Source: a virus
Lineage: Duplodnaviria > Heunggongvirae > Uroviricota > Caudoviricetes
DNA length: 29,154 nucleotides
Direction: 5' to 3' (one strand)
IMG/VR virus record: IMGVR_UViG_2778261301_000008
Span: 1 to 29,154 of that record
Shown here: piece by piece, positions 3,301-23,196 of the stretch
How positions within the stretch are numbered: position 1 is the stretch's first letter
How the letters are laid out: the number at the start of each line of letters is the position of its first letter
The notes under the pieces: generated by a model
Seen by the model: only the letters and a program-made list of their open reading frames with translations
Databases searched by the model: none
Told to the model about the DNA's origin: nothing
Position numbers and translations under genes: made by a program

Positions 3301-3763
3301 TGGTGATGTCTTTTTCTGTCACCCAGGCACCGTTACGCTGTATCTGAACCAGCAGGCGGACTTCCGACGGATTCCGGTCACCCTTTGAGGTGGTTTCCAC
3401 CAGAGCCTGCACACCGAAGGTAAAGCGCAGTCGGTCGATGTTTGCCGACGTGATGGTCCGGGTGATCGGCGTGTCATATTTCACTTCCGTACCCAGCACC
3501 GTCTCGGAGCCGGAGGATTCAAACCCCTCCGGCGGTGTCTGCTCCTGCTCACCGGCACGGAACACCACCGTGACACCGGAGATGTTGGTATTCCCCTCAG
3601 TGTCCAGCACCGGCGTACTGTTCAGCAGCACGCTTTTTAATCCATCCACCGGACCTTCAACCGGCCCTTCGCTGATGGCATCGATCACACTCAGCAGCTG
3701 CGTGGACTTCAGGTTGTCCTTCGCTTCGCGCGGGGTATGCCCCTTACTGCTGCCTTTACCCAT
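368..3763 (-). CDS. J: Tail tip / host specificity protein J (central tail fibre)
   Basis: 1131-aa ORF; size, position after I and before lom, and sequence character match lambda gpJ; C-terminal receptor-binding part looks divergent from lambda. Confidence 0.92.
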
Positions 3764-3823
3764 TCGTCATGCTCCATAAACGACAAAACCGCCCTGAGGC
3801 GGTTTCACATAAAACGTTTTTCA

Positions 3824-6148: not shown

Positions 6149-9100
6149 TCAGGCACTGTATAATCCTCCGTCCCGACGTGATGACTGCATAATTGACACA
6201 ACCCTGCTGTCGATCAGATCCACCAGCCCCCTGGCTGACTGCGTATCTATCTCGCCATTGCTCCCTTTATTCTGAATACTGATGTGATACACGGGAGAAT
6301 AGACAAATCCGCCGCCACCATTCACATTGCCAATGGCTCTGACCCCAAGAGAGCCGTCCGCTGCCCGCGTCAGTGGCATGATAGCTTCAGGCCCGGCCTC
6401 GCCCATCAGTCCGGCACCTTTCGCAAAAGCAAAATACGTCGGCGTATCCACAATAGTGTTACTGTAAGCACTCAGATTTGCCGATGTGTAAACACCACCT
6501 TTTGCGTTTGCTACTGCCCCCGAAATCCATCCGCCTACCGTACCAAGCCACCCTCCGGCGCCGGAGAGTGATTTCAGTCCGTTAACAATGGCCGCATTCA
6601 TCAGAATTTTTGAAACTTCCTGGAGAACTGAACTCCCCCAGTTCCTCCAGTCAACAACATTCCCGGCCAGTGCATCGGAAATATTTGATACCAGCCCGTC
6701 CATGGTGGAAACGACAGCATCTGCCGCCTGCGAAGCATAATCAGTGGCACTGTCTGCCCAGTTCGTCAGCCCCTCCTGGAGTCCGGCATTCCAGTTACTG
6801 CGTAAAGCATCAGCCTTTGCATAATAATCCTGCTGATCGCTGAGACGCTCTTCCAGATATTTTTTATTCAGTTCTTTCTCCTGTTTCCACAGGGCTTCTT
6901 CAATTTCTCCGGCCTGATACTGTCTCAGCAGCTCGTTATTTTTCTGCTCAAACGTCTGCCGGATACTCCACATTTCCTGGAGTCGTTCACGCATCCGTGA
7001 GCCTTCACCATATCCCAGCAACTGCGCGTCGTCAGATGCCCGGGCACTGGCATTACTGTCCGCCAGACTGCTCTCATACGCAGCAAGCTGCTCACGAATC
7101 TTTTTCTGGTCGATGAGTGCTGCATTCTGCAAAAGCGTTTTTTTCTGCGCTTCTGACAGGGTTGATAATTCGCCCTGACTGACCTGATATTTCATCTTAG
7201 CCAGTTCAGTATTCTGCCCTGCCAGTGCTATCTGCTCTTTCTGCTGTTTAATCAGCCGTTTATAAATATCTTCTGTTTTTTCCGCCTCGGTCTTTTTATG
7301 CGCTTTGGGTTTATTTGCCTGATTATTTCGCCATGCATCCAGTGAGTTATTTATATAATTCAGTCTTGCTGTCTGATATGCCTCTCCCACAAAGCCGAGA
7401 TCATCCGCAGCATAACCCAGGCGGGCACGCTCACGGGCTTCCCCCTTCAGGCGGGACAGAGCCAGTTCGCGCTCGCTGTTATTCAGTGCGGTCTGCTGTT
7501 TATCATCCAGGGTTGCCTGTGGCAGCCGTAACGGTACATTCACCAGCCCCTGACGCTGCTGAAGTAACTCATTACCAAGCCCGAGAAGGCGATTAAACTC
7601 GGTATGCTGCCCATTCATGATCAACAGGGACTGATACGCTTTGTTTTGTTCCGCTGCCTGTTGACGGATCAACGCAACCCGCCGCTCCTCCAGCCCGGCA
7701 AGCACATCCTGAATGGATTGCGCTTTGCCCTGCATTTGTGTGAGGCGAGACTGTTCAACTGCCAGTTGATTTGTTGCTTCGGCAAGCCCTTCTGTGACAG
7801 TTTTTACCGACGTCATGTGGTTAATCATAAAACCGTTATCGGTTGTCCAGCCCGGGTTTGCCAGCACGTACTGATAGCCAGCAATTTTTTCCTGTAAGGA
7901 TTTAATCTTACTTTTCTGCTCGTCAATTAACCTGTTCTGCTCCTTCAGTGCCTGCCGCGTCTTTTCCTCATTATCTGACGCTTCAGGAAGCGACATTGCC
8001 GACGTTTTCTGGCGAATTTCGTCGATTGTTGCGGCATACTGGCGTGCAGATTCTCTGGCCTGCTCCTGATTCTGATACATCGTGTACCAGGCCGCGGCCC
8101 CCAGCATGACAAGCCCCGGCACACCCCCAACCAGTCCCAGTGCTCCACTTAACAGACGACTCCCCGCTGACGTGACAGTATTCAGCGTTGTCTGTGCTGC
8201 TGTTCTGGCCGCAATATTACGGGTAAGTGATGCCTGGGCAGCAGCCAGTTTCGCTTCTGCGGCTGCCTGCCTTTCGGTACCGCGAGCAGCAACAACCGCC
8301 TGTTGCGCACGATAAACCGCCGCACGCGCCCTGGCTGTTGCTATCTGTGTCCCCCGAAGTTGCGCTTCCGCAAGAGCCACTTCGTTTCTGGCTGCAGTAA
8401 TTAATCCGGCAGTTGCAGATCCAGCAGAAGACGCCATATTGCCAAAATATCGGGCTACCCCGACGGCAACCAGAGCACCGGCAGCGGTTGCCACAGTGTC
8501 AATATTGCCTGCAATACCATTCAGCACACCAGAGAGCGTCTTTGTCACTCCGCTTGCCTCGTTCGCACCACCAACCCAGGCCATAAAGGCGTTTTCAACT
8601 TTGGTTGCAGAGGATGAAACAGTATCAGGCATTGCTGCATATTCATCACGTAACGCCCCAAGCTGACTAATCAGTGCAGGAACAACCTTATCGGCGGTCA
8701 GTTTTCCGTTATCCGCCATGGCCTTCAGATCCTTACGGGCAACACCCATTCCCGCAGCCAGCGCACGAATAACACGATCGCCGTTCTCATTCACAGAGTT
8801 AAATTCTTCACCGCGCAGCACTCCCTGCGCCAGTGCCTGACTGAACTGCGTGATCACCGAACTGGCTTCTGCTGTACTGGCACCGGATAATTTCAGCCCC
8901 GTGGAGATCGCCTCGGTGACTTTCAGTACCTCCTCAGAACTGTAGCCATACTCCCGCATGGAAGCTGCAGAGCGGGCAAAAAGGCTGGCGTTATCCGAAA
9001 ACGCCGTCCCCGTTCTCTGGCTGATTGCCATTAATTCACGTTGTGATGCCTGAAAATCATCACTGGACTGCGTGGCCTGCTTCAGACGGGCATTGACTGA

Positions 9101-9382
9101 ATTCCACTCATCGGCGAGAGAAATAAGATGACCGGTAGCAAAAGCCCCGGCAAATGCCTCCGCCATATTCAGTGCCGAAGACTTAGCTGTATTTATCTGA
9201 TCCGTCACTTCTACCAGTGCACGCCGCATTTCACGGGATGCTGCAGCGGACTGTCGGCCTCCGTTCTGCATGGTGCGGTAGTAATCCTGCCCCATGCGCG
9301 AAGCCCGGGCGATCTCTGACTGGAATGACCGGGAGTTTGCCGAGATTTTAATAATCAGTTCACGTAATGTCGCCACACTCAT
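6149..9382 (-). CDS. H: Tail tape measure protein H
   Basis: 1077-aa ORF, Ala/Gln-rich and coiled-coil-like with a Gly-rich C-terminus, located between GT and M; GGAGA Shine-Dalgarno before the ATG. Confidence 0.92.
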   Translation of the reverse strand: MSVATLRELIIKISANSRSFQSEIARASRMGQDYYRTMQNGGRQSAAASREMRRALVEVTDQINTAKSSALNMAEAFAGAFATGHLISLADEWNSVNARLKQATQSSDDFQASQRELMAISQRTGTAFSDNASLFARSAASMREYGYSSEEVLKVTEAISTGLKLSGASTAEASSVITQFSQALAQGVLRGEEFNSVNENGDRVIRALAAGMGVARKDLKAMADNGKLTADKVVPALISQLGALRDEYAAMPDTVSSSATKVENAFMAWVGGANEASGVTKTLSGVLNGIAGNIDTVATAAGALVAVGVARYFGNMASSAGSATAGLITAARNEVALAEAQLRGTQIATARARAAVYRAQQAVVAARGTERQAAAEAKLAAAQASLTRNIAARTAAQTTLNTVTSAGSRLLSGALGLVGGVPGLVMLGAAAWYTMYQNQEQARESARQYAATIDEIRQKTSAMSLPEASDNEEKTRQALKEQNRLIDEQKSKIKSLQEKIAGYQYVLANPGWTTDNGFMINHMTSVKTVTEGLAEATNQLAVEQSRLTQMQGKAQSIQDVLAGLEERRVALIRQQAAEQNKAYQSLLIMNGQHTEFNRLLGLGNELLQQRQGLVNVPLRLPQATLDDKQQTALNNSERELALSRLKGEARERARLGYAADDLGFVGEAYQTARLNYINNSLDAWRNNQANKPKAHKKTEAEKTEDIYKRLIKQQKEQIALAGQNTELAKMKYQVSQGELSTLSEAQKKTLLQNAALIDQKKIREQLAAYESSLADSNASARASDDAQLLGYGEGSRMRERLQEMWSIRQTFEQKNNELLRQYQAGEIEEALWKQEKELNKKYLEERLSDQQDYYAKADALRSNWNAGLQEGLTNWADSATDYASQAADAVVSTMDGLVSNISDALAGNVVDWRNWGSSVLQEVSKILMNAAIVNGLKSLSGAGGWLGTVGGWISGAVANAKGGVYTSANLSAYSNTIVDTPTYFAFAKGAGLMGEAGPEAIMPLTRAADGSLGVRAIGNVNGGGGFVYSPVYHISIQNKGSNGEIDTQSARGLVDLIDSRVVSIMQSSRRDGGLYSA

Positions 9383-9391
9383 TCTCCGGAC

Positions 9392-9417
9392 GAAAAAAAC
9401 CGCCGAAGCGGTTTTTG
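9392..9417. terminator. Bidirectional terminator-like hairpin between the AT-rich insertion and H
   Basis: A7-ACCGC-cgaa-GCGGT-T5; on the minus strand the hairpin is followed by a T7 run just before the H ribosome-binding site. Confidence 0.5.
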
Positions 9418-9423
9418 TATTCT

Positions 9424-9576
9424 TTAAAGAAGTCCGGCCTTACGCCTTGCTTCCTGAAGATATTCATCATCCGTTTTTTGTGAAACGGAACTATCTGCAT
9501 TGCAGATTAAATCACTACCGCAATGCTTACATTTAATCACCTCTTCTTTGTTCGGGTCTGCACAGGGATTCTTCAT
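9424..9576 (-). CDS. Hypothetical small Cys-containing protein (50 aa), low confidence
   Basis: Hand translation MKNPCADPNKEEVIKCKHCGSDLICNADSSVSQKTDDEYLQEARRKAGLL; weak ribosome-binding site; below the ORF-track size cutoff. Confidence 0.3.
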   Translation of the reverse strand: MKNPCADPNKEEVIKCKHCGSDLICNADSSVSQKTDDEYLQEARRKAGLL

Positions 9577-9584
9577 GTCATTGT

Positions 9585-9758
9585 TTACCATTTGTTATTC
9601 ATATGGCTTCTCATTTCCAGGATTACAAGTGAATGGATCAGAGCAACAATAAAGATCATCGAGCCATATATCCACCACCTTAAAAATGAGCAACCTTTGC
9701 TTTTCGTGATAATCGCCGGAATCAGCCCTAAAATTATTGAAATAAGTACGAATTCCAT
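9585..9758 (-). CDS. Small two-helix membrane protein (57 aa) in an AT-rich insertion between GT and H; positional analogue of the HK97 gene 15 superinfection-exclusion moron
   Basis: Hand translation MEFVLISIILGLIPAIITKSKGCSFLRWWIYGSMIFIVALIHSLVILEMRSHMNNKW; strong AAGGAGG Shine-Dalgarno 5 nt upstream; low GC; lambda has no gene here. Confidence 0.55.
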   Translation of the reverse strand: MEFVLISIILGLIPAIITKSKGCSFLRWWIYGSMIFIVALIHSLVILEMRSHMNNKW

Positions 9759-9815
9759 CGATGCCTCCTTACTTACTCAATAAAACGGGAATAATAATTC
9801 AGTTATGTGGAAAAT

Positions 9816-10504
9816 TCATCGGGATGCAACAAATAACGCCCTCTCAATCTCAGCAAGTGGATCGCCCATATTATTTTCACAGGCGCATTCCCACTGAAGA
9901 AGTGCATCATTCAGTGGAACTTTAACCCCCTGCGCACCGTAAACAGCTGAAACAATCTGGGCAGCACGGATATCAGCCCGTTCGTCCCCCAGCGGGCTGA
10001 ACCTGTCAAATTCTGCCCACATCATGATTTCTGATGCGGACATTTCCCGGCGTAATTCTGACAATGTACGCCCCATCCTGAGTGCCAGCATCATCAGAAA
10101 ACGCATCCCCGGAAGCGCTACTTTTTTTTAACCTCGCCGGCATCACTGATCAGTTCCAGAGACTGCCGAAGAAGCCGCGCATGCACCGGGCCATACACGG
10201 CAATCACCTGTTCACGATCATCCTCTGAAAATACAGGTTGCAGTCCGGTATCACACAGAACATCAATGAACAGTTCAACATCTGCCTCCAGATTTCGGCG
10301 GGCGCGCTCCGCAACGGATAACGGTGTCTCATCATCTTTTGCTTTAACGATCTCCTGCCAGCGCAACCAGGCTTCTGCAGAAGGTTCCCGTAATACAACC
10401 GTTGCCCCTTCCCATTCAGGCACATCAACAGTTTTATGGCGAAACCCCGACATCGTTGCCAGTGCCAGATTACGGATATTTTTAGTCATCACACCCATCC
10501 TCAT
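9816..10504 (-). CDS. GT: Tail assembly chaperone GT fusion produced by programmed -1 ribosomal frameshift
   Basis: The downstream ORF 9816-10106 is in the -1 frame relative to G; the G frame ends GTT AAA AAA AAG TAG, giving an A_AAA_AAG slippery heptamer, and the -1 frame is open from that point. Confidence 0.8.
10118..10504 (-). CDS. G: Tail assembly chaperone G
   Basis: 128-aa ORF directly downstream of V, ending ...GEVKKK at an A-run slippery site. Confidence 0.85.
   Translation of the reverse strand: MRMGVMTKNIRNLALATMSGFRHKTVDVPEWEGATVVLREPSAEAWLRWQEIVKAKDDETPLSVAERARRNLEADVELFIDVLCDTGLQPVFSEDDREQVIAVYGPVHARLLRQSLELISDAGEVKKK
10119..10130 (-). other. Slippery site for the G/GT -1 frameshift (A AAA AAG within an A8 run)
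   Basis: Plus-strand T8 run at about 10122-10129; homopolymer length is uncertain by 1 nt in my reading. Confidence 0.7.
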
Positions 10505-21926: not shown

Positions 21927-22001
<75 letters not shown>

Positions 22002-22003
22002 AT

Positions 22004-22079
<76 letters not shown>

Positions 22080-22204
22080 CGCTGGTTCCTCGGGTGTGAA
22101 TGAGATGCCCGGATACATAATTTACCCTTCCCTCGGAACCGCAGAGATAATACAAATAAATAACCAGAATTCAATATTTGCTTATTCGTCTGTCGAAAAA
22201 GTCA

Positions 22205-22374: not shown

Positions 22375-23196
22375 CTATCGCGTTACCCTCTTTAACTGCC
22401 GCTCCGCCCATGACTCTTCAATGTCAAACCGAACCACCAGCGTATCGTAAAAACGCTTCACTGATTTTTTCCACGTATCAAGAGTGATAGCGCTCGTCAC
22501 TTTGCATATGGCATTAAACGCCTCTGTTGACGGCAATCTTTCATAGCCACGACCACCACAACGCTGGCAGTCTCTGATAACAGGCATACCACGTTTTACC
22601 GACTCTTCACGATGAATGGCGACACCACGCCCACGGCAATCCTTACAGGCGGTGGAGACCTCACCCTTTCCCCCGCATTCAGGACAGGCAACTTTTACCA
22701 CTTCCCGGACTTTTTTCCATTCTTCCCAGTAAGACGGATACACGCCTTTTGTACACTTTGCCCATACTGGCGGCTTGCCATCCGGATACTGGACCTTGTT
22801 TGTAAAAACTACGCTTTCAATAAATTTTTTCCCACCGCAACAAGGGCACTGTTTTTTACTCGCTGCACTGCGGGCATAATCCTCAAAAGCGTACGAAGCC
22901 ATAATGCGCATCACTGCCGGTTTTATTTCTGCCGGAAGTTTTCTCAACGCCGCCACGCGATCGCACCGACTGAGTGCATAATCTGCCAGTAATTCTGTTG
23001 CCCGCGCCCTGTCATTCATACTGATGCCCATTTTCCCCAGGAACGCAGAAAATCCCATCTCAGCCCGGTTTTGTGTCATACCCTGCGCAGCCATCACATC
23101 AGTGATGCTCAGCGCATCTTTTGACGTCGAGGCGGATGCATCAGTCAGTCCTAGCGATTTTGGGGAATAGTATTTCGGTAAATCTTCCAGCTTCAT
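22375..23196 (-). CDS. Antitermination protein Q-like, with four CxxCxGxG zinc-finger repeats
   Basis: 273-aa ORF directly upstream of pR'/tR' and the lysis genes; ATG overlaps the rusA stop (ATGA); repeats CPCCGGKK, CPECGGKG, CKDCRGRG, CQRCGGRG. Confidence 0.65.
   Translation of the reverse strand: MKLEDLPKYYSPKSLGLTDASASTSKDALSITDVMAAQGMTQNRAEMGFSAFLGKMGISMNDRARATELLADYALSRCDRVAALRKLPAEIKPAVMRIMASYAFEDYARSAASKKQCPCCGGKKFIESVVFTNKVQYPDGKPPVWAKCTKGVYPSYWEEWKKVREVVKVACPECGGKGEVSTACKDCRGRGVAIHREESVKRGMPVIRDCQRCGGRGYERLPSTEAFNAICKVTSAITLDTWKKSVKRFYDTLVVRFDIEESWAERQLKRVTR

Follow-up and report, generated by a model that had tools for sequence, protein, structure and literature searches.

A probable moron-type cassette with an apparently decayed membrane and zinc-ribbon gene before the tape-measure gene of a lambdoid prophage

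The structural genes of the lambdoid, HK97-like prophage in IMG/VR virus record IMGVR_UViG_2778261301_000008 (29,154 nucleotides, analyzed over its whole length and referred to here as the window) lie on the minus strand and include an AT-rich gap of 433 bp between the gene for tail assembly protein T and the tape-measure protein (TMP) gene, which raises the question of what this DNA is and what it encodes. An original prediction, made from the sequence of the window, had read the gap as an insertion encoding a small membrane protein of 57 amino acids (aa), possibly an exclusion factor of the type of the HK97 gene 15 product (gp15), and perhaps a second small protein. The analyses reported here make us fairly confident that the insert is a moron-type accessory cassette, placed between the T stop codon and a pre-existing hairpin at the slot that HK97 gene 15 occupies; this confidence is a joint one, covering the accessory cassette, a cargo unrelated to gp15, and the identity of that cargo as a decayed gene for a two-helix and zinc-ribbon protein. 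The gap and the features of its cargo are as follows.

Positions 9383-9815: the gap between T and the TMP gene, 433 bp.
Positions 9764-9770, minus strand: ribosome-binding site AAGGAGG, 5 nt 5' of the ATG, as read from the sequence.
Positions 9585-9758, minus strand: 57-aa open reading frame (ORF), in which codons 1-46 are the two-helix module and codons 47-57 (LEMRSHMNNKW) an out-of-frame tail.
Positions 9618-9620, minus strand: 1-bp deletion (ancestral ATC CAA AGA changed to ATC C-TG GA), which shifts the frame after codon 46.
Positions 9595-9597, minus strand: TAA nonsense codon in the ancestral frame (CAA changed to TAA, Q55*).
Positions 9568-9569, minus strand: 6-bp deletion, by which Cys65-Pro66 are lost (KKCPYC changed to KN-PC).
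Positions 9424-9591, minus strand: 55-aa ORF, which reads in the ancestral frame and is what remains of the C-terminal part, its zinc ribbon damaged.

The 57-aa hydrophobic ORF is present as predicted, with its near-perfect AAGGAGG, and hydropathy analysis found two hydrophobic peaks with a KSKGCS loop between them, in agreement with a small predicted membrane protein as cargo. The proposed second ORF, of 50 aa and containing Cys, also exists (it has 55 aa, or 50 aa if counted from an internal Met), but it is a damaged C-terminal half rather than a separate gene; its start ATG overlaps the end of the 57-aa ORF (ATGGTAA). When compared to phrog_8436 (110 positions), the 57-aa ORF matched positions 1-51 (E = 7e-17) and the 55-aa ORF matched positions 69-108. 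Because both ORFs match this one family, and because relatives hold one uninterrupted ORF, the two are the halves of a single decayed minus-strand gene. The 57-aa ORF thus did not hold up as a complete gene, as alignment to intact relatives showed it to be the N-terminal half, cut short by the frameshift, of a protein of 113 aa.

A search of 5,426 complete E. coli genomes found the insert DNA in 18. In 16 of these the DNA is approx. 88% identical to that of the window and holds an annotated 113-aa "zinc ribbon domain-containing protein", while the other two (2014C-3075 and JNEC-KY180) match the window at 99.5% identity and are without a RefSeq gene annotation at this place. The 88% DNA identity between the window insert and the intact E. 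coli alleles is an overall value; the final ~150 nt are identical. An intact single ORF at the junction of T and the TMP gene was found in E. coli JNEC-KY173, in other E. coli prophages and in Cronobacter prophages, an intact 111-aa version occupies the same slot in Salmonella phage FSL SP-016, and 80 of the 80 best IMG/VR loci showed an uninterrupted ORF between T and the TMP gene. As the insert as a whole has 88% DNA identity to the intact alleles and lies in the slot that they occupy, the window gene descends from the phrog_8436 family and is its pseudogene.

This family is large: clustering at 90% identity gives over 1,600 clusters, and no fewer than 565 viral loci carry it. Its intact members have 109-113 aa and four Cys (e.g., WP_000394908.1) and share a layout in which two membrane helices form an N-terminal hairpin and are followed by a short linker helix, a zinc ribbon with four Cys and, at the C-terminus, a further helix. 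The membrane hairpin carries the motif GLIPAxIA-x-SKGRSF-xx-WW-x-YG...A..H and the ribbon the motif KKCPYCAExIKxEAIKCKHCG. An AlphaFold2 model of an intact member (mean predicted local distance difference test score 77.5) placed helices at residues 2-20 and 25-45, followed by the linker helix, the ribbon at residues 62-85 and the C-terminal helix. Among 119 homologs 18 columns are fully conserved, and R23 is near-invariant. Whereas the family thus consists of single intact ORFs with four Cys, the window copy is split and has lost the first Cys.

Several of the differences that set the window copy apart fall on conserved positions. The 6-bp deletion takes out the first zinc-binding Cys, in the first CPxC knuckle, and the ribbon also shows E70D, L71P, I72N and A76V, while the membrane module shows A18T and R23C. 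Residues A18, C65, E70 and A76 are invariant in 119/119 homologs; position 23 is R in 114/119 and R, K or H in 119/119, and is never Cys in this set, although a Cys at the R23 position occurs in one distant standalone member of the module. Most of the conserved positions of the two-helix module (G11, P14, A18, K21, G22, R23, F25, W28, W29, Y31, G32, A39 and H42) are kept in the window. The Zn_ribbon_3 model scored 16.8 bits for the 55-aa ORF, against a cutoff of 27, and 34.7 bits for an intact relative.

Erroneous single-base indels are frequent in assemblies generally, and an apparent frameshift might reflect a sequencing or assembly error that splits a gene which is really intact. We give this explanation almost no probability. 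The identical 1-bp deletion recurs in 2014C-3075 and JNEC-KY180, which are independent complete genomes, and on over 200 contigs (211 carry the exact 57-aa product, and 50 and 1 carry two variants with changes confined to the out-of-frame tail), and the deletion site lies outside any homopolymer run. Moreover, if the deletion is repaired, the in-frame TAA and the missing zinc-binding Cys remain. As the lesions recur in independent complete genomes and on 211 contigs, we do not regard them as sequencing errors; the error reading was rejected on the basis of the independent assemblies and the additional lesions. An exact 30-mer search for the window-type allele in IMG/VR gave no match.

Comparisons of substitution patterns separated the intact alleles from the window lineage. 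Intact alleles from E. coli, Salmonella and Cronobacter showed ratios of nonsynonymous to synonymous substitution rates of 0.08-0.13. Using an outgroup, 27 private substitutions were assigned to the window lineage vs 5 to JNEC-KY173 (p = 1e-4, Tajima relative-rate test); the corresponding numbers for the adjacent T gene were 17 and 10 (not significant). The surplus of the window lineage falls mainly within codons 47-77 (linker and zinc ribbon), where it has accumulated 2 synonymous and 13 nonsynonymous substitutions, as neutral drift predicts. Overall, the gene is probably inactive in the window prophage or yields at most a two-helix stub; in mechanistic terms the function would have been lost, and the 57-aa stub would be the most that could be made from the strong ribosome-binding site.

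Three observations sit uneasily with complete decay. In codons 1-46 the window lineage shows 6 synonymous and 6 nonsynonymous substitutions where the neutral expectation is ~77% nonsynonymous (binomial p = 0.04), the truncated product occurs on at least 260 contigs, and standalone module proteins of 56-70 aa exist, one of them with KGCSF like the window. These observations could be explained if the 57-aa ORF works alone, as a minimal two-helix inner-membrane exclusion factor that is useful after loss of the zinc ribbon, and the near-perfect ribosome-binding site has been kept. The contrast between the module (6/6) and the linker and ribbon (2/13) is a weak hint that the stub may have stayed under some constraint (p = 0.09, Fisher test). 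These statistics are marginal, however, as they involve ~12 substitutions, and part of the divergence of the module may predate inactivation. In addition, the stub carries A18T at a 119/119-invariant position and R23C where only R, K or H was seen, its promoter-like element (described below) is weak, and RefSeq annotates no gene in either complete genome with the window allele. We therefore consider a working stub unlikely and return to a gene that is probably inactive.

The second question is how the gene came to lie at this junction. Morons, in the sense of Juhala and Hendrix, are extra pieces of DNA that close relatives lack, with deviant base composition and with their own promoter and terminator, which are expressed from a repressed prophage (PMC3594210). 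The flanking genes and the candidate control elements in the window are as follows.

Positions 10118-10504, minus strand: tail chaperone gene G (Pfam).
Positions 9816-10106, minus strand: gene for tail assembly protein T, the upstream flank of the insert (Pfam Phage_tail_T, 68.4 bits).
Positions 9791-9819, minus strand: promoter-like element (-35 ATGAAT, 17 nt, -10 TATTAT) with 8/12 matches to the consensus.
Positions 9393-9416, minus strand: terminator-like GC hairpin and T7 (stem-loop 9400-9411, T-run 9393-9399), directly 5' of the TMP ribosome-binding site.
Positions 6149-9382, minus strand: ORF of the TMP gene, 1077 aa, the downstream flank (probable gene 6149-9376; Pfam TMP_3, Phage_HK97_TLTM and Tape_meas_lam_C).

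The predicted insertion of approx. 430 bp of AT-rich DNA was borne out, as the GC content of the gap is 38.6%, compared to 51.1% for G and T and 52.6% for the TMP gene. Lambda has no gap here, as had been stated, and its T and H genes overlap. In phi467, a closely related phage, the T/TMP junction measures 45 bp and is empty, and the TMP start is 98% identical to that of the window, while HK97 carries gene 15 at the same junction, consistent with the prediction of extra DNA in the gene 15 moron slot. At every tail-cluster site examined the GC content of the gene was 34-42%, as compared to 50-57% for its flanks. Family members were also found at the K/I junction (Atlantibacter), at the L/K junction (Edwardsiella), after the tailspike gene at prophage ends (Enterobacter), before the TMP gene of an unrelated tail module (Raoultella), beside an integrase gene (Desulfobaccales) and in chromosomal islands.

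The promoter-like element of the window ends 32 nt before the ATG, and its -35 hexamer shares bases with the T stop codon. Its position is conserved: at 46 of 80 viral loci the highest-scoring promoter match was (G/T)TGA(C/T)(A/T)-17-TAGGAT, ending 27-32 nt before the ATG. Elements with at least 9/12 matches, scored by consensus match only, were present in 71% of the distinct upstream regions of relatives and in 11% of shuffles.

The conserved placement of the gene before the TMP gene in phages of E. coli, Salmonella, Cronobacter, Raoultella and Pseudomonas, including phages with unrelated tail modules, would also be expected if the intact gene were a lytic tail-assembly or DNA-delivery component that works with the tape-measure protein, rather than cargo for lysogeny. 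The divergence of the protein (62-70% identity) is similar to or lower than that of its neighbors T (53-63%) and TMP (42-72%), which fits such a role. On the other hand, phages with a 98% identical TMP start lack the gene altogether, the gene is broken in an otherwise intact structural module, K/I and L/K junctions, prophage ends and chromosomal islands harbor it as well, and it has foreign GC content and a promoter-like element of its own. A structural role is thus very unlikely in our judgment, and a moron-type accessory cassette accounts better for the locus.

The terminator-like hairpin that had been predicted before H is present (CCGC-TTCG-GCGG followed by T7; fold -13.7 kcal/mol), but it is not specific to the insert, as it is kept at the empty junction of phi467. 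Counterparts with different but compensating stems were found in phi467, Stx2 phage 1717, HK97, Cronobacter and the unrelated Raoultella module; the stems, that of the window included, are CCGC/GCGG, CCTGC/GCAGG, CCCGCT/AGCGGG and CCCCGC/GCGGGG (comparison stretches L047, ~1800-1837; L048; L004, 899-923; L031, 5361-5382; and L046, just before 5472). These compensating stems point to a conserved junction element and not a part of the insert. Since it is found at the empty phi467 junction and in other phages, the hairpin may belong to the tail operon, as a native attenuator that sets the levels of TMP relative to the chaperones, or may serve as a docking point for cargo genes. The Q antiterminator of the prophage could read through it during lytic growth.

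On either side of the insert the boundaries of the flanking genes were refined. The TMP gene probably starts at the GTG at 9376 and not at the ATG at 9382, because the GTG is preceded by GGAG (9384-9387) 7 nt upstream, because it gives a product that begins with MATLREL as in HK97, and because the Prokaryotic Genome Annotation Pipeline (PGAP) annotation of relatives in RefSeq uses it; the ATG is only 1 nt after the GGAG. At the end of T (9816-9890, minus strand) the last ~25 residues are WECACENNMGDPLAEIERALFVASR in the window and WEKEQAEGVSDPFAEIEKALFVAAR in close relatives, while the first 70 residues differ at one position, and the T end of phi467 also differs from that of the window. This divergent C-terminus, next to a near-identical remainder, argues for a recombination boundary inside T, such that the last ~25 codons are mosaic and travel with the insert. 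Two plus-strand antisense ORFs of 86 and 80 aa overlap the insert region; as they are not conserved in relatives, they were treated as spurious.

With regard to what the cargo does in its intact form, the suggested kinship to gp15 was not supported. BLASTP gave E values of 0.3 and 6.4, and the Pfam YebO model did not match the window ORFs or 30 family members even at permissive thresholds, while gp15 itself matches YebO (PF13974) with 35.4 bits; a diverged gp15/YebO identity was rejected on these grounds. The more general idea of an exclusion factor survives only via a weak similarity to the T4 Imm protein and via gp065 of Pseudomonas phage YMC11/02/R656, and not via gp15. In the gp065 protein a true Imm_superinfect domain (PF14373, 66.8 bits) is fused to the same zinc ribbon as in the window family (CPYCAE..KC.YCG), and its gene sits between the chaperone genes and the TMP gene; T4 Imm belongs to PF14373 (58.2 bits). 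An hhalign comparison of the two-helix module to the PF14373 set gave a score of 23.2 (probability 44-60%), as compared to 10.2 +/- 2.5 for column-shuffled controls, none of which (0/200) reached 23.2. We take this as suggestive of remote homology between the two-helix module and PF14373.

We propose, tentatively, that the intact protein is expressed from the prophage, is placed in the inner membrane and keeps the DNA of incoming phages from entering. In the manner of T4 Imm or HK97 gp15, it would stop this DNA from crossing the membrane, and it may act on a tape-measure-dependent step of entry, which would explain why the gene so often adjoins the TMP gene. A number of results weigh against this proposal. 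The Imm similarity is weak at an hhalign probability of 44-60%, the best shuffled control reached 22.4, and the PF14373 model gave no match to the window ORFs, nor to any of 30 family members searched at E up to 10. By the positive-inside rule, the basic SKGRS loop would give the zinc ribbon a periplasmic location, an unusual one for a domain of this kind, and fusion architectures gave conflicting hints on topology. The PADLOC anti-phage defence library gave no relevant match, and no literature was found on a zinc ribbon together with moron, tape measure or exclusion, or on WP_000394908.

Other searches for a function were likewise uninformative. No function is recorded for phrog_8436 in its PHROG and NCBI entries; Pfam, NCBIfam and PADLOC name only the zinc ribbon and hold no model for the two-helix module; sequence searches of solved structures gave only chance-level zinc-ribbon matches (e.g., ribosomal protein bL32, E ~0.1); and Foldseek with the AlphaFold2 model against viral structures returned only unnamed "zinc-ribbon containing" proteins. 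The Tab and Tai proteins from the literature were unrelated. A homolog in the "Lambdavirus" PDP110P1 had been considered as lying at the lom position, an idea that was dropped because the region has no similarity to lambda.

Class II holins and small abortive-infection effectors are likewise built from two membrane helices and a charged C-terminal domain. The intact family could thus be another kind of accessory protein, such as a membrane-disrupting abortive-infection effector with a phage-sensing ribbon, a holin- or antiholin-like modulator, or a factor in host physiology. The weakness of the Imm similarity is in keeping with this, as is the generic nature of the two-helix module, which occurs also with HTH_3, rhomboid and OB-fold domains and in tandem. 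Among the loci examined, however, the gene was never in a lysis cassette, the PADLOC result offers an effector no relevant match either, and a role in entry is the better fit both to the repeated adjacency to the TMP gene and to the presence of a PF14373 fusion at this slot. We hold such another role to be possible though rather doubtful, and retain the blocking of DNA entry as our tentative proposal. A still broader version, which we regard as improbable, is that proteins with two helices and a zinc ribbon form a large Imm-like exclusion class that adjoins the TMP gene because it targets the DNA translocation performed by the tape-measure protein, and that co-evolves with the TMP of the resident phage for self/non-self discrimination, the 57-aa product being a natural minimal version that keeps some activity in the absence of the ribbon.

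The distribution of the two-helix module was also surveyed. An exhaustive HMMER search yielded 1,419 representatives at 50% identity, and the module (GLIPAxIA-KGRSF-WW-YG) was observed as standalone proteins of 56-70 aa, in tandem, at the C-terminus of HTH_3 (XRE-type) regulators, and in rhomboid or OB-fold fusions (examples labelled P0143, P0254, P0142, P0262 and P0269). In Pseudomonas phage vB_PaeS-D14C (stretch L131) an unannotated 103-aa ORF with two helices and a zinc ribbon (3465-3776) lies just before the TMP gene; in its place the record has a 58-aa ORF of the other strand (3373-3549), probably by mis-annotation.

Some further observations concern the remainder of the window and related prophages. 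Elsewhere in the window are the tail tip genes, together with genes for terminase, an HNH protein, lysozyme and the Q antiterminator (22375-23196); tRNA genes for Gly-TCC and Thr-TGT (21927-22080, minus strand) lie between the Q gene and the lysis region. The end of the G gene (10118-10129, minus strand) reads GTT AAA AAA AAG TAG, and its run of eight A is a likely slippery site for the -1 frameshift that gives a G-T fusion. In an E. coli prophage of the window type (stretch L029, 9136-10290) minor tail gene M is followed, at the place expected for L, by a porin gene of 384 aa (Pfam Porin_1/Porin_4), a further insertion of cargo into the tail cluster. In a Cronobacter prophage (stretch L032, 6334-8289) the product downstream of the zinc-ribbon gene joins tape-measure and translesion-polymerase (IMS) domains, and this prophage appears truncated or rearranged at that product.

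For the window, these results mean that two apparent small genes would be one dead gene, and because of this the prophage probably gains nothing from it. The family behind the pseudogene is strongly conserved, has no published function and no Pfam model for its membrane module, and lies repeatedly directly before the TMP gene in temperate phages of enterobacteria and Pseudomonas. Its link to T4 Imm is weak and is supported by gene context; if entry blocking were true, the family could join the short list of inner-membrane proteins that block entry of phage DNA.

Compared to known systems, the family can be set beside T4 Imm and HK97 gp15. T4 Imm, which according to its record annotation keeps superinfecting DNA out of the cytoplasm, comes from a lytic phage and has no zinc ribbon, and the PF14373 motif LPAxIA...GW..G...AL resembles the IPAxIA...WW.YG...AL of the window family; both are small two-helix membrane hairpins, while the window family has a short, basic loop (SKGRS) to join the helices and PF14373 a longer one. 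The gp15 protein is a proven inner-membrane exclusion protein, with specificity residing in the tail region of the incoming phage (PMC3594210). The window copy is a pseudogene, and gp15 has 62 aa with one N-terminal membrane helix and a helical tail in place of two helices and a zinc ribbon. Nevertheless, gene 15 occupies the same junction of T and the TMP gene as the window insert, and, like it, is AT-rich (32.8% GC), has a strong AAGGAGG-type ribosome-binding site, is followed by a hairpin and a T-run, and encodes a small predicted membrane protein.

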